From NCBI GenBank assembly GCA_026397135.1, contig JAPLVL010000020.1:17679-59025 (forward strand): a stretch of DNA of 41,347 nt, in the 5' to 3' direction. Shown one piece after another: positions 17,337 to 34,079 of the stretch. Position 1 is the first letter of the stretch. Each line of letters begins with the position of its first letter. The translations under genes and the position numbers were made by a program. The notes below the pieces were generated by a model that saw nothing but the letters and a program-made list of their open reading frames with translations, did not search any database and was not told the DNA's origin. This stretch comes from Candidatus Berkelbacteria bacterium. GTDB lineage: Bacteria; Patescibacteriota; UBA1384; XYA2-FULL-43-10; 1-14-0-10-43-13.

Positions 17337-18350
17337 TTAATTCTTACTGCCTAATTCTTGCCTTCCTGCCAGCTGCCCGCATGCGCCGGCTATTTCCTCG
17401 CCGAGACTTACACGCAAGGTGACAGGGATGCGATTCTCCAGCAAGACAGTCTTGAATCTCTCAATCTGGTTCCGACTACTGGCCCGAAATCCCGATCCTG
17501 GAATTTCGTTGAAAGATATCAAATTGACCAAGGCAAGCCTGCCTTTCAGAAGCTCAGCTAATTTGTAGGCATGATCTATACTATCATTCTCACCCTTTAA
17601 CATCAAATATTCATAGGTCACCTTCTTGTTCGTCTTGGACACAAATTGATCCAGGACATGCATCAACTCCGAGAGAGGATTAACCTTTGCAATCGGCATT
17701 AATTTTTCTCTCAATTTCTGGTCTGCCGCGTGCAGACTGATCGCCAATGTTGTGCCGGTATCAGACTCAATGAATTGCAAAAGCGGTTTAATGGGGCCGC
17801 AGGTCGAAACGGTAATATGACGACGACCCAGATTGAAGTAATCAGGATTGTTTAATTCACCAATCGCAAATAAAACATTTTGTAGATTAAACAACGGTTC
17901 GCCCATGCCCATGAAAACAACATTCGTCAGCTTTCCGCCTTTGGCTTTTAACTTCCGACTTACAAATAAAACCTGTGAAACAATTTCCCAGGCAGTCAAA
18001 TTGCGTTTGAATCCAATCTGACCAGTAGCGCAAAAAACGCAGCCGGAAGCACAGCCGACCTGAGATGAAACGCAGACAGTATTGCGACCATCGCGAAATT
18101 GCAACAGGACAGTTTCAATAACACAGCCGTCAACCAATACTAGCGCCCACTTGGTCGAACCGTCTTTGGAGACCTGTTCTGATTTGGTTGTGAAGGGTAC
18201 AAGATTGGTCTCTTTCTCAATCATTCCCCTCTCGTATTTGGAAAAAGTGGTCAAGTCCTCCGCCCTTTCGACCAGGTTCACAAAAATGGCAGTCCTAAGC
18301 TGCTTTTGGCGAAGTGATGTCAAATTTTTCAAATATTCATAAAAATCCAC
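17337..18350 (-). CDS. rlmN: 23S rRNA m2A2503 radical SAM methyltransferase RlmN
   Basis: TVCVSSQVGCASGCVFCATG, NVVFMGMGEP, LAISLHA, IAGACGQL. Confidence 0.95.
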   Translation of the reverse strand: MDFYEYLKNLTSLRQKQLRTAIFVNLVERAEDLTTFSKYERGMIEKETNLVPFTTKSEQVSKDGSTKWALVLVDGCVIETVLLQFRDGRNTVCVSSQVGCASGCVFCATGQIGFKRNLTAWEIVSQVLFVSRKLKAKGGKLTNVVFMGMGEPLFNLQNVLFAIGELNNPDYFNLGRRHITVSTCGPIKPLLQFIESDTGTTLAISLHAADQKLREKLMPIAKVNPLSELMHVLDQFVSKTNKKVTYEYLMLKGENDSIDHAYKLAELLKGRLALVNLISFNEIPGSGFRASSRNQIERFKTVLLENRIPVTLRVSLGEEIAGACGQLAGRQELGSKN

Positions 18351-21772: not shown

Positions 21773-23929
21773 ATGAATCGCGAAGAACTTGCAAAGGCAA
21801 TCGCCAAAAAGGCAAAAATCGGCACCAAGACAGCTGACCGTATTATCGGCGCTTTTGGCGAAGCAATCACCGAAGCTCTGAAAAAGAAAGACCGCGTCAT
21901 TTACTCAAACTTTGGAGCCTTCTATACAGTTCACTATCCATCCAAAGTAATTTTGCACCCCACCCTTGGCGAGAAAAAGAAAATGATTATGCCGCCAACC
22001 GATGTCGTCAAATGGATGCCATCAGGAAACATCAAAGAGCTAGTAAGCGGTACTGCCAAACTTGAGCACATTACCAGTTTTGGCTCAGCCAAACGTCTCT
22101 ACGAAAGCCAGGATCCCGAGACCAGAATCGCAAAATCACACGAAGTAGACGATCAACCCACTTTGAAAAAGTCAGCTCCAGAAGACGAGACTTATGATAT
22201 TCCGATCAAGGTTAAGTCCCCAAATTCCGTTCAGAACCATCAAAGTGTCTTTGGCGACGCAGAAGAAGTAAATCCGGATGAGGAAGTCGCTATTCCGATT
22301 CACCTGATGAGGAAGAAACCCTCCGATATTATTCCTATCCCTGATCTCGATGAAGAGCCTGATCACAATTCAGAAGACAACATTTCAGATGAAGAAGGCG
22401 ATCTCGTCGCTGTCTCCAAATCTACGCCTGCCTTTATTGATTTACAGAATTATATTATTCCACACCAAATCTTGGCCCTAATGCCTGAACTCTTCGCCAG
22501 ACATTTCAAGATTGTACCGATCGGCGGAGACGAACATGAACTAATCGTTGCAATGACAGACCCTGACGACAAGGAGACAATCGAGCTGGTCCGTCGTCTC
22601 ACAGGCAAGAAGATATCAGTTCACCTGACAGACGAAGTTGGCCTGCAATCCATCTATGAGCAATACCAAAGCCTCAACAATCGTGAACAGACAGTCTGGG
22701 AGCATGCCTTTGACAACGAAATGATCTCGAACAAGACAAGCAAAACCGCCCCGATAATCCGAATCGCCGCATCTCTCGTCAAAAACGCCATCCGCGATCA
22801 TGCAACCGAAATTCACGTCGAGCCGCAAGGTAGCGAGATTCAAATTAGATTTCGAATCGAAGGAATACTGAAGAAGAACTCTGCATTCCCCAAAGAGATA
22901 GGCTTGACCTTAGTCAAAGTACTGAAAGATCTCTCCGGACTCAAGGGCAACGCCGAAGGACTTCCCCAAGACGGACAACTTCGTTTCCGTCTTGGCAACG
23001 AGGAATTCGATTTTCTAACCCATTCGATTCCGACGGCAGAGGGCGAGAAATTGTATCTCAAGATGATCAGCAAACTCCCGAAGCTTTACTCTCTTGAGGA
23101 CCTCGGGCTAGAAGAGGCTGATTATCAACTCATCCAACAAAATTTACGCAAAACTACCGGCCTAGTGTTAATAATCGGCTCAAAAAATTCAGGCAAGACA
23201 AGCACGGTTTACTCCTTTTTGCGAAGTCTCTTGGCCAATGTCATCAACATCTCGACAATCGAAGACCCGATCGAGGCTAAAATTCCTGGAATCAACCAAA
23301 GTCAAGTCAATACTTCTATCGGTTTTGATTTGCGCTTAGGCCTCGACACAATAATTAAGCAGTCCCCCGACGTTTTGTATATCAGTAGCCTCACCGACAA
23401 GAAAATTGCAGAGCAGGCTCTTCTAGTCTCCCAAGACTGCCTAGTCATAACTACTTTGGAAGCTGCCACCGTACCCGAAGCACTAACCAAAATGATAAAT
23501 TGGGGAATCGATCCTCTACTTTTGGAAAGTTGCCTAAACCTAATCACTCTCGAACATCTAGTGCGCCGAAACTGTGAAAGCTGCAAGAAAGAAATGACCC
23601 CGAGCGATCTCGAGGTCAAATCAATTCGCGATGAAGTTGCCAAAATGTCCTCCCGAGACCAATCCTTTATTCACAAGATGAGACTCCATTTTTTCAAAAG
23701 CGAAGGCTGCTCCGAATGTGGAAAATCCGGATACCGCGGACGCTTTGCCGCCTTTGAGATAATCGAGCCTACTCATGAGTTTATCGAAATGGCCCTAAAC
23801 CATAAATCACCGGGACTTTTCTGCGATTATTATCGTACGCACAACCTCAAATCCTTGCGACAAGATGCACTACTCAAAGCTCTCACAGGCTATACTTCAC
23901 TTGCAGAAGTCTGGAAGATACCTGAATAG
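21773..23929 (+). CDS. Fusion of an N-terminal HU/IHF-like domain with a PilB/GspE-family secretion ATPase (degenerate Walker B and His box)
   Basis: aa 1-91 HU pattern (MNREELAKAIAKKA...NFGAF...P...VVKWMPSGNIKELV); AMTDPDD N-domain; TEIHVEP, LPQDG, GSKNSGKT, TIEDPIE, CESC/CSEC, SGYRGR. Confidence 0.88.
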   Translation: MNREELAKAIAKKAKIGTKTADRIIGAFGEAITEALKKKDRVIYSNFGAFYTVHYPSKVILHPTLGEKKKMIMPPTDVVKWMPSGNIKELVSGTAKLEHITSFGSAKRLYESQDPETRIAKSHEVDDQPTLKKSAPEDETYDIPIKVKSPNSVQNHQSVFGDAEEVNPDEEVAIPIHLMRKKPSDIIPIPDLDEEPDHNSEDNISDEEGDLVAVSKSTPAFIDLQNYIIPHQILALMPELFARHFKIVPIGGDEHELIVAMTDPDDKETIELVRRLTGKKISVHLTDEVGLQSIYEQYQSLNNREQTVWEHAFDNEMISNKTSKTAPIIRIAASLVKNAIRDHATEIHVEPQGSEIQIRFRIEGILKKNSAFPKEIGLTLVKVLKDLSGLKGNAEGLPQDGQLRFRLGNEEFDFLTHSIPTAEGEKLYLKMISKLPKLYSLEDLGLEEADYQLIQQNLRKTTGLVLIIGSKNSGKTSTVYSFLRSLLANVINISTIEDPIEAKIPGINQSQVNTSIGFDLRLGLDTIIKQSPDVLYISSLTDKKIAEQALLVSQDCLVITTLEAATVPEALTKMINWGIDPLLLESCLNLITLEHLVRRNCESCKKEMTPSDLEVKSIRDEVAKMSSRDQSFIHKMRLHFFKSEGCSECGKSGYRGRFAAFEIIEPTHEFIEMALNHKSPGLFCDYYRTHNLKSLRQDALLKALTGYTSLAEVWKIPE

Positions 23930-26434: not shown

Positions 26435-26953
26435 TTATTTTATAATCATTTCCACGATCTTCATTCCGAAAATATCAGCGGATGGTACACCGTCTGCCGT
26501 GACAATATTGCCATCGACAGTCACGCCTTCTTTCGTGTACACAATTCCACGAGAAATTAGTTCCTCTTTGGCCCCCGGCCAAATCGTCGCCTTCTTGCCG
26601 TCCAAGATACCTGAGCGTGCCAGGACAGCAACAGCCCAGCAAATCGCTGCCACAATTTTACCAGCTTTGAAAAAATCACGAGCGAGCGAAAGGGCCGATT
26701 CTTCCACCAAAATTTGTGGTGTTCCTGGACCGCCAACGAAAACAACCGCCTGATAATCCTCAGCATTGATCTGTGATAACTCGAAATCAACTTCGACACT
26801 TTGCCCGGACGCTCCATAGCACTCCCCAATCGTTGTCGAAGCGATCGTAACTCCAATCCCTTCGTCATCAAAAGCTTGTTTCGTCTGAAACAACTCCTCC
26901 TCACGAAAATTACTCGGCGCAATCACCATCAATACATTACTTTCCGATCCCAT
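26435..26953 (-). CDS. DJ-1/PfpI family protein
   Basis: IAPSNFREEE, VVFVGGPG, AAIC nucleophile, VTVDGNIVTADG; GGAGG SD before MGSES. Confidence 0.92.
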   Translation of the reverse strand: MGSESNVLMVIAPSNFREEELFQTKQAFDDEGIGVTIASTTIGECYGASGQSVEVDFELSQINAEDYQAVVFVGGPGTPQILVEESALSLARDFFKAGKIVAAICWAVAVLARSGILDGKKATIWPGAKEELISRGIVYTKEGVTVDGNIVTADGVPSADIFGMKIVEMIIK

Positions 26954-26994
26954 AATTCCTCCAGCCAAGAATGGATAACTAATTTTACTAATCA

Positions 26995-27375
26995 CTAATA
27001 ATAATTTGGTATTCTTTTAATCTTAACACCATCTCTCGTGAAACGTACTATCAGGCCAAGCTTCAGCTGAGAAGTTTTTAAATATTCAAAGAGCTGATAA
27101 CAAGAATTTTTATATTCTCTGTCCCCGACCTTAACTTCAATAACAATTTTATCATCAACCAAAAAATCAAAAAACCTCTTGGCCAAAGTTTTTCCTTCAT
27201 TTTTTATCGGATAATAAACTTCCCGCTTGAACAAGTTGGTTTCTCTTTTTAAAAGTTCTTCAAAAGCATCAGCGTAAATTTTTTCACGATGCCCATAACC
27301 AATTTTGTTGTCTATCTCATATGCTAGTCCAACAAGCCTGTAGGACAGATCTTTGTAAAGTAATTCTCTATGCAT
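26995..27375 (-). CDS. GxxExxY family protein (PD-(D/E)XK nuclease-like)
   Basis: IGYGHREKIY, FDFLVDDKIVIEVK, QLFEYLK..KLGLIVRF. Confidence 0.9.
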   Translation of the reverse strand: MHRELLYKDLSYRLVGLAYEIDNKIGYGHREKIYADAFEELLKRETNLFKREVYYPIKNEGKTLAKRFFDFLVDDKIVIEVKVGDREYKNSCYQLFEYLKTSQLKLGLIVRFTRDGVKIKRIPNYY

Positions 27376-27388
27376 TTATTATTCGTGA

Positions 27389-28753
27389 TTAGTTTAATTT
27401 GCGATCCATTTCTGGAACAACGCGGAGGCGTTGTTCTATCATTTCCCAGCTCTCTTCACCCTTAAACAAACCGTACTTTTGCCAGACTTTTTCTCGCTCA
27501 CGATATTTATCGTCGTAAATGGCGTAGGATTTGCAATATTTCTCCGGAGTCAAGTTGAACATCAGTGCGTTTGCTCCGGCAAGCAAACCGAGATGGCGAC
27601 CCTCCAGATCAAGTGTTTCAAGCGCAGTTGTAACCGGTATTTTAATCTCCGGCATCAAAAACCGGGCAATCGCAATATATTTCAAAGTCAATTCCAAAAG
27701 AGTTTCTCTCGTCATTCCCGACCCGATCGGGAATCCATCAGAAATATTGGATCCCCAGGTCATGGCTTCGCCTGCCCGAGGATGACAAGATAGCGGAGTA
27801 TTCTTTGCTAATAAAAAGGGCCCGGCCGAGAGCATCGGTGCCTTCAAACTTTTCATAAAAATCAGATCATCAGCAATACCTCCAATCGTTTGGCCAGGTA
27901 GTCCGAATAGGCTACCTGTCGCCACATAGTAGCCCGTTTTAATTAATTCCTGAATTAGCCTTTTTCGATCATCAAATTTATGACCTGGCCGCATCTTGGC
28001 ATACAATTTTTGGTTGGATATCTCAAAGCGAATTAGTGCACCAGTCGCTCCAGATTCATACGCTTCTTTGTAAAAATCAACACTTCTCTCACCAACCGAC
28101 AGAAATATGAAAACTCTCATTTTCTTTTTGATCTCTCTTACCAGCTGGATCAATTCTGAATCAGAATAATTCTCATCTTCTCCGCTTTGCAAAACGAGAA
28201 GTTTATAACCTTCGTTTTCGACAGCATTCCCGGCGACTTCGACGATCTCCTCAACGCCAAGCCGGTATCGATCAATCCCCTGGTTGTCCTTCCTAATCCC
28301 GCAATAGAGGCAATTGTTCTTGCAGTAATTTGAGAATTCAATAATTCCATGAATACAAACAAAATCTTTGATCCGCTCCTTGCGCAGAGTGTTCGCCTCG
28401 GCATAGAGAGTTTCGAGATTATTCTTGCCTTTCAGACTAAATAAATAAATTATCTCGTCCTTGGTTAAATTTGAATCACCACTTCTGACTTTGTAGATAA
28501 TTTTCTTGAATTTGAGAGAGAGGCGACTGACATCGACTGGGTTATATTTGTCTTCCAACAATGAAATAATTTCCTTGGCGTCTTCCTCCGATATGGCCTT
28601 CACTGCCCTGTTTGTGGCGTAAAGTATCCAATCCCCGGGTTTCACATCAAAAACAAGCGAGAGGTCAATCTGTGCCCTCTCGCGATGAGATATGACAGTT
28701 GCCACACCCTTACTATCTATACTTTCGATTTTTCCAGGAATTGTTAAACACAT
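27389..28753 (-). CDS. Fusion of a HypC/HupF-like domain with a HydE/BioB-like radical SAM enzyme
   Basis: MCLTIPGKI...VKPGDWIL...ISEEDAKE (HypC pattern); GIIEFSNYCKNNCLYCGIR, VLQSGED, GLPGQT, GPF...TPL, PVTTALETL, AGAN..M.NLTP...YAIY (HydE pattern). Confidence 0.88.
   Translation of the reverse strand: MCLTIPGKIESIDSKGVATVISHRERAQIDLSLVFDVKPGDWILYATNRAVKAISEEDAKEIISLLEDKYNPVDVSRLSLKFKKIIYKVRSGDSNLTKDEIIYLFSLKGKNNLETLYAEANTLRKERIKDFVCIHGIIEFSNYCKNNCLYCGIRKDNQGIDRYRLGVEEIVEVAGNAVENEGYKLLVLQSGEDENYSDSELIQLVREIKKKMRVFIFLSVGERSVDFYKEAYESGATGALIRFEISNQKLYAKMRPGHKFDDRKRLIQELIKTGYYVATGSLFGLPGQTIGGIADDLIFMKSLKAPMLSAGPFLLAKNTPLSCHPRAGEAMTWGSNISDGFPIGSGMTRETLLELTLKYIAIARFLMPEIKIPVTTALETLDLEGRHLGLLAGANALMFNLTPEKYCKSYAIYDDKYREREKVWQKYGLFKGEESWEMIEQRLRVVPEMDRKLN
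27711..27786. repeat. GTCAT...ATGAC palindromic element inserted in frame in the HydE-like domain
   Basis: GTCATTCCCGACCCGATCGGGAATCCA...TGGATCCCCAGG...CCCGAGGATGAC; encodes CHPRAGEAMTWGSNISDGFPIGSGMT. Confidence 0.85.
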
Positions 28754-28797
28754 ACACAAAAGTTAAATGTTAAAAGTTAAATGTTAAAAATTAAAGA

Positions 28798-29379
28798 CTA
28801 GAGGTCAGGAGCAAAATTATAAATTGATTTATTTTTGAGATAATTCTCAAACTCGCCAATATTATGCACACCACCATTCAAAACAGCTTCATAGATCACA
28901 GTACTAGAGAAACGCCAGCCCTTGGCTTTCTTGTAATCTTTCAATGTCAAAATAAGGATTCGAGTTGCTTCATCAATTTTCATAAGCTGACTTGTAAACT
29001 TTTTGCCACTAGCTGAGTCTTCCACAATAAACCAGAGATCAATTTTCCAATTCCGGTCAACGCTCTGGAGACCAAGATAATAACCTCTCGGAAAATCTGG
29101 AAAGCGAACATCAGGATAATCTACAAAATTGTCCAGCTTAAACGAACGAAAATAATTCTGTTCGATTAGCTTCCCCATTATTTCGAATATATCCGACTTC
29201 TTCAGATCTTTAACAAAAATATGGATGTCAATATCTTTGGCCACCATCAGATCGTAACTATAGCTGCCAGTAATTTCGACTCTGCCATATTGCCGGAGCA
29301 ATTCCAAAAGTGCTGAATCGTCCAGCATCTTCTCCGCTTCTCTCTTCAGTTCTCCGCTTTGTTCAATAAATTTGTGCAT
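28798..29379 (-). CDS. Pol-beta superfamily nucleotidyltransferase-like protein
   Basis: ITGSYSYDLMVAKDIDI (GS...DxD) and third Asp in WKIDLWF. Confidence 0.7.
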   Translation of the reverse strand: MHKFIEQSGELKREAEKMLDDSALLELLRQYGRVEITGSYSYDLMVAKDIDIHIFVKDLKKSDIFEIMGKLIEQNYFRSFKLDNFVDYPDVRFPDFPRGYYLGLQSVDRNWKIDLWFIVEDSASGKKFTSQLMKIDEATRILILTLKDYKKAKGWRFSSTVIYEAVLNGGVHNIGEFENYLKNKSIYNFAPDL

Positions 29380-31577: not shown

Positions 31578-34079
31578 TTAGTTTTTCAATTCAGCAGTCG
31601 CACTCGGACCCAGCGGTTTCATCACGGCTTGGCCTTGTTGCAGAATATTTTCGATATCCTTTTTGTACAATTCACGATATGCCGAATCATTTACGATTCG
31701 ATCAGGACTCCAGTAAGTTTTGCCCTTGATGAAGAGAAAACCGTCACGATGTGCCATCCAGCCTTCACGAACTTCGCCAGTATTCGAAGGAGAATAATCA
31801 GGTTTCGAATCAGCACTCGGCAGGATCCACTTCCACTCCTTGCTGTGACTCAAATCACGCAAGAAATTTTTGTTGTCGAGATAATCATGCAATCGCTGCA
31901 GTTTATCAGACTGGCCCTTCTCCAACATCGAAACGATGTGGTCCCTGAATCCTTGCATCTCAGGCTGATTATTGTTCTCGAAATTATAATCATGACCAAT
32001 CTCAGAAGCATGCACCGCAACAGGTGTTTCGGGAACATGAGCCGCGTCAGCAGAGGTATGTTCAGCGACATTCCCGTGATCAGTTTGATGTGGAGCTTCA
32101 AGCCAACCCTCGCGAACCATCGTGCCACTATCCTTGTCCGTCTGAACGAAATCTTTGTTCCCTTCGTAGGTATGTGCGTCACCCAAACCTTCACGCTCAA
32201 GTAGTGGGTTAGTGTCACCGACTCTTCCACCACTCTTAGTTTCGTATGTGGTGCCGCCTGGTTTTGGCTCCTCTGGTGTTGCCTTCATCTCTCTTGGCAG
32301 CTCATCTGGACGAGTGTCGTGAGATGAAATAATATGACCCATTTCTTGGTGGTCAGTGACCTGTGGTGTAGAAATATCAGCGTTTGCTTCAGGAGTGACA
32401 CGATCAGCGAAAGGAATTCTCTCAAGCAGTGATTCAGTTGGTGTCAAATGAGTTCCGTCCGGCAAAACCCCCTGCTCAGGACTATCCATTTTGATATCTC
32501 GCGACATATTATCAGCGTATTCAGGTAATGTTGAAGGCGCAGCAGGACTCTGGTCCGGCTCTATCACATGAAGGTCAGTATTGCTAACATCCAGTGGAGT
32601 CGTTGCATTGTCTGAGCTTAAATCCAGCGGACGCTCATTGTCATTTCCCGGAACAAAATCATGTGATTCAGATGTGTCAGTTGGCACAGCTTCGGAAGTA
32701 GTATGGTCCGGCTTCACCGTCACAGGTATCACTCGTGATTCATCTACCGGTTTTGCTGCTGATACTTCGGGATGTTCTGGCTCTTTTGCTACTACATGCT
32801 TTTCTGTGTGGGCGTGTGATGGATTCTCATGATGAGCAGTATGCTCAATATAAGTTCGGCTAGCCGTGTGATGTTCGGTCGGAGCTGCTGGATGATGAGC
32901 ATGGCTAGCTTCAGAAGTTGATGCTATATGTTCAACATGTGAAGGGCTTGGCGAACCTTGTATTTCATTTGTCGGCTCACTGCCCGTAATTCCAGGCACA
33001 ATTTGCCTGCCAGGTTCCGCGACATGACCAGACGAAATATGAGGAGCCTCGGAATGATGGCCCGGTTCGACAACGGTGCTTGAGCCAGTCAGATAGTCAT
33101 GCGCTTCAGCTCTTCCGGCGAAGAGCAGTGCCGAAGCTCCAACAGCCACAGTAGATCCGAAGGCAACCGAACGCTGTTTTTCTCTCTTGGCATCATATTT
33201 GGCCAAAATGTACAGCTCTGCTACTTTGTTTGGTGCAATTTTACCCTGTTCCACTCTCCTCATCAGTTCATCTTGCATCGTTTTGACTAAATCAGAATGT
33301 TCATAGCCTTCTCGTGCATACATCCGTCTCGTGCCGAGGACACCCAGGCCAAGAGCGGCGGCCGCTCCAACTACAGGCATCGTGATTCCCAAACCAAGAG
33401 TAGCTAGAGGAACACACACTTTCAAATATTTCGGCATGCTGGCAAAGGCTTCACGCGCTTTTTCCAGATTTCGGCTAAACCAATTTCCTGCCTCTTTTTC
33501 TGTAATCTTGGCAATCGTTTCTTTGTCCTTGTCTGCCAGGACTTCGCTGATAGCCAAACCTCTGGCAGTCGCGATCTCTGTCAGCCGAACAATGCTGGAG
33601 ACAAGTTCTTTTTCATCAACACCAGCAAGGGCAGATGCATCAATTTTTCCGTCAGAACCTGAGATTTTGTCCAGGACTGATTTTTCGGTCTTCAGTGCAT
33701 ATTGAGCTTCTCCTGCACTTCCTCCACCAATCGCGCCGAGTCCAGTTCGCAACACCTGAGAGGCAACGCCAACGCCAGGAGCGACCGCAGCTACCATCGA
33801 AGCGCCAACACCAGTTACCAATCTTGCCGTATTATTTCTCTTGAACTTGGCAAACCAGCCTCTCCATCCGGTGAGATTTCGCTCGGCTCTGATATTGGCT
33901 ATCTCCATATTCGTATCTAGATATTTTTGACATTCGCTCCGTCTCGTTTCCAGCGCTTCAGCCGAAACTTCCGGACTTTCTAGTTCACCCGTAAAATCTG
34001 GCTCCGCCGATGGAGTCAAAATTTCGCCTGCACTTCCCCCCTCCAAGGACGGATCTGGAGATGTTTCATGTTCTGCCAT
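31578..34079 (-). CDS. Large membrane-associated hypothetical protein with a His/Pro/Thr-rich disordered region
   Basis: 833-aa ORF; GGAGG SD; Gly/Ala-rich hydrophobic segments in the N-terminal 330 aa. Confidence 0.85.
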   Translation of the reverse strand: MAEHETSPDPSLEGGSAGEILTPSAEPDFTGELESPEVSAEALETRRSECQKYLDTNMEIANIRAERNLTGWRGWFAKFKRNNTARLVTGVGASMVAAVAPGVGVASQVLRTGLGAIGGGSAGEAQYALKTEKSVLDKISGSDGKIDASALAGVDEKELVSSIVRLTEIATARGLAISEVLADKDKETIAKITEKEAGNWFSRNLEKAREAFASMPKYLKVCVPLATLGLGITMPVVGAAAALGLGVLGTRRMYAREGYEHSDLVKTMQDELMRRVEQGKIAPNKVAELYILAKYDAKREKQRSVAFGSTVAVGASALLFAGRAEAHDYLTGSSTVVEPGHHSEAPHISSGHVAEPGRQIVPGITGSEPTNEIQGSPSPSHVEHIASTSEASHAHHPAAPTEHHTASRTYIEHTAHHENPSHAHTEKHVVAKEPEHPEVSAAKPVDESRVIPVTVKPDHTTSEAVPTDTSESHDFVPGNDNERPLDLSSDNATTPLDVSNTDLHVIEPDQSPAAPSTLPEYADNMSRDIKMDSPEQGVLPDGTHLTPTESLLERIPFADRVTPEANADISTPQVTDHQEMGHIISSHDTRPDELPREMKATPEEPKPGGTTYETKSGGRVGDTNPLLEREGLGDAHTYEGNKDFVQTDKDSGTMVREGWLEAPHQTDHGNVAEHTSADAAHVPETPVAVHASEIGHDYNFENNNQPEMQGFRDHIVSMLEKGQSDKLQRLHDYLDNKNFLRDLSHSKEWKWILPSADSKPDYSPSNTGEVREGWMAHRDGFLFIKGKTYWSPDRIVNDSAYRELYKKDIENILQQGQAVMKPLGPSATAELKN

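Follow-up and report, generated by a model that had tools for sequence, protein, structure and literature searches.

What is the task of a protein that carries at its N-terminus a HypC domain, the chaperone type of [NiFe]-hydrogenase maturation, and behind it a radical S-adenosylmethionine (SAM) barrel resembling HydE, a maturase of [FeFe] hydrogenases? The question is raised by a gene in a stretch of 41,347 nucleotides (hereafter the window; contig JAPLVL010000020.1, positions 17,679 to 59,025) from a Candidatus Berkelbacteria genome (GCA_026397135.1), a member of the Patescibacteria. A preliminary description, made from the letters of the window, had proposed a hybrid or repurposed metallocofactor-assembly enzyme, and this proposal is supported by the genomes we compared, as the fusion is conserved across phyla and is accompanied by a [NiFe] hydrogenase in 50 of 50 genomes and by an [FeFe] hydrogenase in 6 of 50. 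The protein combines HypC with a diverged HydE paralogue and represents a widespread family that probably matures [NiFe] hydrogenases without HypD, HypE or HypF. The best-supported reading is that known domains (HypC, HydE and HydG) have been recombined into an undescribed maturation route.

Domains, active site and phylogeny of the fusion

The gene occupies a single open frame on the minus strand (27389-28753) with no internal stop, and its product begins MCLTIPGKI. A TTG at 28759, two codons upstream, is the mechanical start of the open reading frame (ORF); the N-termini of homologues agree with the ATG. The fusion of a HypC domain to a HydE-like radical SAM enzyme, as read in the preliminary description, is borne out by hidden Markov models (HMMs), with both domains above their cut-offs (PF01455, TIGR00074 and TIGR03956). 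HupF_HypC (PF01455) matches residues 1-66 across profile positions 1-65 of 65 (51.4 bits vs. a cut-off of 28.5), hypC_hupF (TIGR00074) gives 51.2 bits against a cut-off of 48, and a comparison with solved structures pairs the N-terminus with T. kodakarensis HypC (2z1c, 32.6 bits). An AlphaFold2 model based on 22 homologues (mean pLDDT 78.7, pTM 0.80) consists of a small five-stranded barrel and a helix, followed by an alpha/beta barrel. Within its HypC part, strands are placed at residues 5-12, 17-21, 26-30, 42-46 and 49-54 and a helix at 56-66, with block pLDDT values of 81-92. The same N-terminus that passes the HypC HMM is thereby predicted, by the model only, to adopt the small OB-like beta-barrel and C-terminal helix of HypC.

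The translation confirms the motifs noted earlier, namely Cys2, the CxxxCxxC of the radical SAM cluster and a C-terminal YxxY (Y410-x-x-Y413). Cys2, directly after the initiator Met, does not vary among the 22 fusion proteins that were aligned. The loss of the HypC histidine, also noted earlier, holds as well: the fusion reads GDWILYATN, with Ala46 where the free HypC of the same genome (GDWILMHDG) has His. We take this histidine, which follows the G-x-W-V-L motif, to be His51 in E. coli HypC numbering.

The larger part of the protein is a HydE-like barrel. Radical_SAM (Pfam) matches residues 138-295 with 66.3 bits, so that two of the three Pfam families proposed as a check were recovered (HupF_HypC, at the 51.4 bits given above, and Radical_SAM), whereas BATS, at 18.2 bits, stays under its cut-off of 22.2. 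The score for rSAM_HydE (TIGR03956) is marginal (257.4 bits vs. a cut-off of 254.6) and split in two stretches. The best sequence match among solved structures is T. maritima HydE (212 bits, residues 97-324 and 354-421), and a Foldseek search places HydE structures on top (3cix, E 3.3e-26, TM 0.82 on target, 38% identity), followed by PylB, BioB and HydG. Both the HMM and the Protein Data Bank (PDB) matches split at an insert, residues 323-346, which is also the sole long low-confidence part of the AlphaFold2 model. We considered this insert as a gained functional element and rejected it, since its length varies even among near relatives.

Residue numbers of T. maritima HydE (TmHydE) were transferred to the fusion through the PDB alignment with 3cix. 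The upper-site residues of HydE are retained (M224 as M307, M291 as M398, K309 as K416, T269 as T376) and invariant in all 22 aligned members, and the equivalents of V105 and L157 are also conserved. The lower S3 site is altered, R54/T134/R155 having become His135/Phe217/Gly238 and H52 having become Cys133. According to a structural review (PMC10114646) and a quantum mechanics/molecular mechanics study (PMC11826987), M224, M291, K309 and T269 of TmHydE serve in handling Fe(I)(CO)2(CN) species and in radical relay, while R54, T134 and R155 of S3 are polar and contact cyanides. The full set of residues invariant across the 22 aligned members comprises Cys2, the GDW motif, C133, H135, the three cluster Cys, M307, T376, R386, M398 and K416. 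A docking prediction for the HypC domain (residues 1-72) against the barrel (91-445) returned a score of 0.02 against a mark of 0.32, which is evidence neither way.

A barrel-only search of 1.84 billion representative proteins yielded 2918 matches at E <= 0.001, of which the best 150 were listed. After 10 shorter listed matches were dropped, the remaining 140 (at least 300 amino acids, aa) were aligned with P0001 and nine proteins from the homologue list (n = 150). Arg, Thr and Arg at TmHydE positions 54, 134 and 155 occur in 96 of these 150 HydE-like proteins. The trees, which are unrooted, include 148 rows with at least 250 filled barrel columns and use 308 columns, four of them the signature columns. 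Cys and His at positions 52 and 54 are found in 31 of the 148 rows, almost all of which also have Phe at 134 and Gly/Ala at 155; a HypC N-terminus is recognised in 24 of the 31, and several of the other 7 are short. All 31 sit in one clade of 32 rows, with a support of 99 (FastTree) or 98 (IQ-TREE SH-aLRT). As judged from these alignments and trees, the fused proteins are a separate clade inside the HydE family with a remodelled S3 site. The earlier label of a HydE-like barrel was therefore right as to the family, but the protein is not an ordinary HydE.

The fusion is well represented among relatives. The architecture PF01455+PF04055 is present in 114 of the 120 best listed homologue clusters, whose members, where a source name is given, are called 'biotin synthase' or 'HydE'. 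When one genome per species was scanned, 83 relatives came to light, and the 80 loci retained span Patescibacteria (several classes), Brocadiaceae/Kuenenia, Planctomycetota, Thermodesulfobacteriota, Syntrophales, Methylomirabilis and others. The window protein falls in a near clade with 56-76% identity and the N-terminus MCLTIPGKI. Two proteins of 881 and 906 aa (P0123 and P0128) are triple fusions of HypC, the HydE-like barrel and HydG, and in one relative (G290) the HypC part appears frameshifted. We found no description of a HypC-radical SAM fusion, or of HydG serving [NiFe] hydrogenases, in the literature searched, a scope that leaves out most subscription journals and supplements; the accessible parts of PMC9431212 and PMC9431491 contain nothing bearing on such a fusion. 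Within that scope, the family is not one already characterised.

Hydrogenases and maturases in fusion-bearing genomes

When the window was scanned for families, no hydrogenase, hyd or hyp gene was found in it besides the fusion. The preliminary description had said as much; the genome, however, is not free of hydrogenase. The assembly totals 1.14 Mb, is divided into 67 contigs and reaches 98.4% completeness as judged from marker genes. One of its other contigs, C45, has a [NiFe] hydrogenase operon of four genes encoding an FeS protein, an FAD/NAD protein, a small subunit and a large subunit of 416 aa, with a free HypC of 75 aa located 1.7 kb downstream. Relatives of these subunits obtain their highest scores with sulfhydrogenase (group 3b type) models, yet under the cut-offs. 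In the large subunit, RICGICPVIH stands close to the N-terminus and DPCITCATH at the very end, so that all four active-site Cys are present and there is no C-terminal extension; as the protein stops at the histidine of DPCxxCxxH, a maturation protease may not be needed. This group-3b-type hydrogenase is likely the client of the fusion. Genes of glycolysis (aldolase, PGK, GAPDH, TPI) surround the operon, which is outside the window (L005 3321-10083), and a GIY-YIG endonuclease-like ORF (L005 6163-6420) separates the small and large subunit genes. The interval from the large subunit gene to the free HypC contains several ORFs without an assigned family.

Across the source genome as a whole, family searches detected no HypD (PF01924), HypE or HypF (only a 26-bit stray), and no [FeFe] hydrogenase (HydA) or HydF (only GTPases, up to 63 bits). 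With queries from family loci, tblastn at E <= 0.01 gave no HypA, HypB or maturation protease, a result that is weak for HypA because it is short. ORFs around the hydrogenase and free HypC of C45 (L005 8306-13177) were considered as Hyp factors and rejected, as they have no Hyp match in Pfam or NCBIfam and none recurs in the 80 loci.

The phylum sample comprised 301 genomes, the source genome included. The fused form occurs in 9 of them, belonging to 6 families. A [NiFe] large subunit was found in 64 genomes, and every one of the 9 is included in these. HypD was found in 17 genomes, none of them with the fusion, and HypC in 59; of the 9 fusion genomes, 3 have no HypC other than the fused domain. 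The fusion lies at most 5 kb from the large subunit gene in 4 of the 9. HydG is present in only 6 of the 301 genomes, 5 of which are fusion genomes. The remaining one (G029), which belongs to the same class as the source genome, forms a contrast: its HydG and an [FeFe] hydrogenase are in a locus that also includes an unfused radical SAM match and a GTPase-like ORF, and neither a [NiFe] large subunit nor HypC was found in this genome.

Gene company was also examined in the flanks fetched for the 80 loci, 38 of which contain a large-subunit homologue. In 46 of the 80, the fusion is closely followed by a second radical SAM ORF. The five such ORFs that were checked are all HydG (534-574 bits vs. 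a cut-off of 312), and the C-terminal CX2CX20-24C motif is retained in 33 of 34 HydG-like ORFs. HypB (5 loci), HypA (5) and a maturation protease (4) also recur. 

From the 80 loci we took 50 whole genomes (17 from the near clade, 14 other Patescibacteria and 19 from outside Patescibacteria), picked for long contigs and taxonomic spread after the flanks had already been seen. Most are metagenome bins, so absences mean 'not found', and related genomes are not independent. A [NiFe] large subunit was found in all 50, in contrast to HypD and HypF, which were found in none; HydF over the cut-off was likewise found in none, and HydG in 34. The case is stronger outside Patescibacteria, where the genomes are larger: all 19 taken from there have a [NiFe] hydrogenase and none has HypD or HypF.

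Two further observations concern the hydrogenase loci of relatives. Beside one fusion-HydG pair, a large subunit gene (G320:C49:63924-65381) contains a single in-frame TGA and matches the long [NiFe(Se)] type over its full length; it presumably encodes a selenocysteine enzyme served by the fusion-HydG module, and this [NiFeSe]-type large subunit indicates that the association is not confined to group 3b. In several Patescibacteria, proteins of 221-230 aa are encoded beside HypC or hydrogenase (L108 1347-2021, L109 3332-4024, L110 1034-1699, L081 10781-11455). They have a weak HypC-like match at the C-terminus (G-D/N-x-V-x-V/I-H) and no N-terminal Cys, and are a possible further maturation factor. 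Those of G112 and G081 are faintly related (E 3e-5); the 217-aa ORF near the HypC of the source genome is unrelated.

The near clade differs from the rest of the family in that HydG never adjoins the fusion; it is present in 5 of the 17 near-clade genomes. One near-clade group shares the synteny of the window (GltX, glycosyltransferase, fusion, DJ-1/PfpI, a 340-380-aa ORF, response regulator, PilB-HU), while four HydG-less genomes have HypC and the fusion beside the hydrogenase operon (L038, L041 and L042; L040 further off). As the HydG-less state is repeated across the near clade, it is not merely a gap in the source assembly, even if such a gap is still possible for the source genome itself; in relative G163, HydG lies at a contig edge. 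All of the invariant residues are kept in HydG-less members, which argues for a working protein. Four genomes of the near clade (G304, G308, G316 and G317) have [FeFe]-hydrogenase-like genes coding for 581-599 aa, and no HydF or HydG was found in them, a further case of a hydrogenase lacking the maturases known for it.

A proposed maturation route and its alternatives

Domain identities, clade, residue pattern and gene company are observations, and they suggest the following route. HydG is a tyrosine lyase making CO and CN, and in most lineages the neighbouring HydG would produce an Fe-carbonyl-cyanide unit from tyrosine. The barrel would bind SAM together with this unit, held by cysteine or another thiolate, in the upper pocket, whose residues are conserved, and by analogy with HydE may process it through 5'-deoxyadenosyl radical chemistry. 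In HydE, two units are held and dimerised at the Arg/Thr-lined S3 site; because S3 is rebuilt in the fusion (His, Phe, Gly/Ala and the new Cys133), the product would be expected to stay mononuclear. Cys2 of the tethered HypC could then take up this product, which would be passed to the large subunit either directly or through a free HypC.

Several points weigh against this route. Every functional step in it has been inferred from comparative genomics and conserved residues. The HydG product carries two CO and one CN, the [NiFe] site needs one CO and two CN, and this mismatch in ligand count means that an extra chemical step would be needed. Among the fused sequences in which the motif was found (58 of 67), none has His at the position of the HypC histidine; 14 of the 58 have a His one residue earlier. 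An [FeFe] hydrogenase is present in 6 of the 50 fusion genomes, all in the near clade (6 of 17). Fusion and hydrogenase are on different contigs in the source genome, where a family search for HydG and a tblastn search with five HydGs from family loci matched only the fusion. Of the 50 fusion genomes, 16 likewise have no HydG, 12 of them belonging to the 17 of the near clade, and its absence here means that a HydG-fed model cannot be complete for the source genome. Lastly, of the 64 genomes of the phylum sample that have a [NiFe] large subunit, 40 have no HypD, fusion or HydG, and most of these 40 have a free HypC nearby. In Patescibacteria a lack of HypDEF is thus common without the fusion and cannot on its own be read as pointing to it. 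The second radical SAM gene of the window (17337-18350) was considered as a substitute for HydG and rejected, as it is RlmN (331 bits).

For lineages lacking HydG, the fusion alone may suffice to load the iron of the [NiFe] site, through salvage of a precursor or through ligand synthesis of its own, an extension that we put forward tentatively and hold to be on the unlikely side. By salvage, a ready-made Fe-carbonyl-cyanide-cysteine unit, or free CO and CN, could conceivably be obtained from the host cell that these very small bacteria live on; by synthesis, the fusion could conceivably make the diatomic ligands from a substrate other than tyrosine. If true, either would be a new means of organometallic cofactor supply, and salvage would be the first cofactor-precursor parasitism of its kind.

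What the absence of HydG means is also the crux of a different explanation, according to which the source genome retains the leftover of a once-complete module, now idle or drifted to a thiol or iron-sulfur task unrelated to hydrogenase. HydG was found neither in this assembly nor in 12 of 17 near-clade genomes, the gene sits in conserved housekeeping synteny outside any hydrogenase operon, and no homologues of HypA, HypB or the protease were found with the queries used. We nevertheless regard a leftover as improbable, if worth keeping in view: the ORF is intact, HydG-less members keep Cys2, C133, H135, CX3CX2C, M307, M398 and K416, four HydG-less genomes have HypC and the fusion beside the hydrogenase operon, and a [NiFe] large subunit accompanies the fusion in 9 of 9 and 50 of 50 genomes. 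The barrel might instead act mainly as an iron-sulfur scaffold for HypC in the manner of HypD, with CO and CN coming from elsewhere and no radical chemistry of the HydE type. HypD is the [4Fe-4S] partner of HypC, it was found in none of the 9 and none of the 50 fusion genomes, the invariant Cys133/His135 pair could ligate a metal, and 16 of 50 genomes do without HydG. Yet the Cys of the SAM cluster are strictly conserved, as are the equivalents of K309, M224 and M291 (radical relay and Fe(I) handling), and a HydG adjacent or fused to the protein is the commonest arrangement, so that we give a pure scaffold rather little chance.

Much less probable is an ordinary HydE for [FeFe] H-cluster assembly to which the HypC domain is an incidental addition. 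The TIGR03956 score lies just above its cut-off (257.4 vs. 254.6 bits), the top sequence match among solved structures is T. maritima HydE at 212 bits, some homologues are given the name 'HydE' by the NCBI pipeline, and an [FeFe]-hydrogenase domain is present in 6 of 17 near-clade genomes. Against these stand the failure to find HydA, HydF or HydG in the source genome, the 44 of 50 fusion genomes without [FeFe] hydrogenase, the absence of HydF from all 50, the replacement by His/Phe/Gly of the S3 residues R54/T134/R155 that 96 of 150 HydE-like proteins have, and the placement of the fused proteins in a clade of their own. That an error of assembly or gene calling has joined hypC to a neighbouring hydE-like gene is hardly credible, even with an assembly in 67 contigs and a relative (G290) whose HypC part is seemingly frameshifted. 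The frame is single and stop-free, the architecture recurs in 114 of 120 listed clusters and at 80 loci of different genomes, and another contig, from the probable source run, agrees, so that an artefact is already contradicted. This last contig (Logan) covers the stretch from end to end and shows 0 differences, but is not independent evidence; among the DNA contigs of a second sample, none bridges 28498-28625. Maturation of [NiFe] hydrogenases by HypC and a HydE paralogue remains the reading we prefer.

Surroundings of the gene and relation to known systems

The fusion gene, its parts and its two downstream neighbours are located in Table 1.

Table 1. Coordinates, within the window, of the fusion gene, its domains and motifs, and the two genes downstream of it.
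Feature	Position	Strand	Details
HypC-HydE-like fusion gene	27389..28753	-	454 aa + stop; stop codon 27389-27391
HypC domain, residues 1-66	28556..28753	-	MCLTIP start, Cys2, GDW motif, Ala46
HydE-like radical SAM barrel, residues 97-421	27491..28465	-	T. maritima HydE 212 bits, Foldseek 3cix
C133-I-H135, replaces TmHydE H52 and R54, invariant in fusion family	28349..28357	-	3cix alignment
C144-x3-C148-x2-C151, radical SAM [4Fe-4S] ligands (TmHydE C63/C67/C70)	28301..28324	-	
Variable insert, residues 323-346, not in TmHydE	27716..27787	-	pLDDT <50
GxxExxY / PD-(D/E)XK gene, inserted between fusion and DJ-1	26995..27375	-	TIGR04256 83.6 bits
DJ-1/PfpI gene downstream of fusion, same strand	26435..26995	-	Pfam 126 bits

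The gene stands in a conserved housekeeping block (GltX, glycosyltransferase, DJ-1/PfpI, response regulator, PilB) and not in a hydrogenase operon. Among the neighbours named in the preliminary description, GxxExxY and DJ-1/PfpI were recognised at 83.6 and 126 bits, respectively, whereas the label of nucleotidyltransferase for the ORF at 28798-29379 was not confirmed, as no Pfam or NCBIfam family matched it. DJ-1/PfpI immediately follows the fusion in 5 of the 15 near-clade loci examined, with one intervening ORF in a sixth, which may be plain synteny among relatives or may reflect a functional tie. The GxxExxY gene is probably unrelated to the fusion.

The spacer upstream of the fusion (28754-28797) contains a unit of roughly 14 bases, AACATTTAACTTTT, twice in tandem. 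A 37-base contig from an unrelated run matches part of this repeat at the very high depth of 384, so that the repeat may be a common one. A promoter scan gave 11 matches, no more than were obtained with shuffles (mean 7.6), and no convincing site directly upstream of the fusion. Further away, the plus strand encodes (21773-23929) a type II/IV secretion ATPase (T2SSE, MshEN) with an N-terminal DNA-binding domain of HU/IHF type, a combination that recurs at 6 loci of relatives. An ORF of 833 aa on the minus strand (31578-34079) has no family match; its middle is a long low-complexity region rich in His, Pro, Glu, Thr and Ser, and its local G+C is raised (0.49 vs. about 0.43).

To our knowledge, the origin of the CO ligand in the absence of oxygen is a long-standing open question. 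HypX, according to the accessible part of PMC6802093, accounts only for the aerobic case. The fusion family is a concrete candidate for a second route, in which HydG is paired with a HypC-wired HydE paralogue in anaerobes of several phyla. If this is true, hydrogenase potential would be read differently from genomes in which the protein is now named 'biotin synthase' or 'HydE'. The particular contribution of the window is a HydG-less form of the fusion that is unlinked from the hydrogenase, and with it the harder puzzle of lineages that have the fusion and a hydrogenase yet no HydG.

Compared to HypC, HybG and HupF, the N-terminal domain has the same MC(L)xIP start and the same predicted beta-barrel with a helix, and it passes both curated cut-offs; it differs in being joined to an enzyme, in having Ala for the histidine of LVH.G, and in that the partner HypD is missing from the genome. 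The barrel has the fold, the CX3CX2C motif and the upper-site residues of T. maritima HydE (3CIW/3CIX/7O1O; TIGR03956). Unlike HydE, the fusion adds an N-terminal HypC domain, has altered S3 residues, forms its own clade, lacks HydF and HydA as partners and accompanies [NiFe] hydrogenases. With HmdB/HcgA, PylB and BioB it shares the radical SAM subclass and the barrel fold, but its scores are far under the cut-offs of these families (147 vs. 348.2 bits for PylB, 68.3 vs. 225 for BioB and 59.2 vs. 320.9 for HmdB), as they are for HydG (48 bits) and likewise ThiH.

At the level of pathways, the fusion system has in common with HydG-HydE-HydF that HydG and a HydE-type enzyme are encoded side by side or fused. 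It differs in having no HydF, in the lack of an [FeFe] hydrogenase in 44 of 50 genomes and in HypC standing at the place of the carrier; in the source genome HydG itself is also missing. With canonical HypCDEF it presumably shares the product, Fe(CN)2CO, and the client, a [NiFe] large subunit with four active-site Cys. In the canonical system, however, cyanide is derived from carbamoyl phosphate through HypF and HypE and the unit is assembled on HypC-HypD, whereas genomes with the fusion have no HypD or HypF, and HydG is the usual companion instead.

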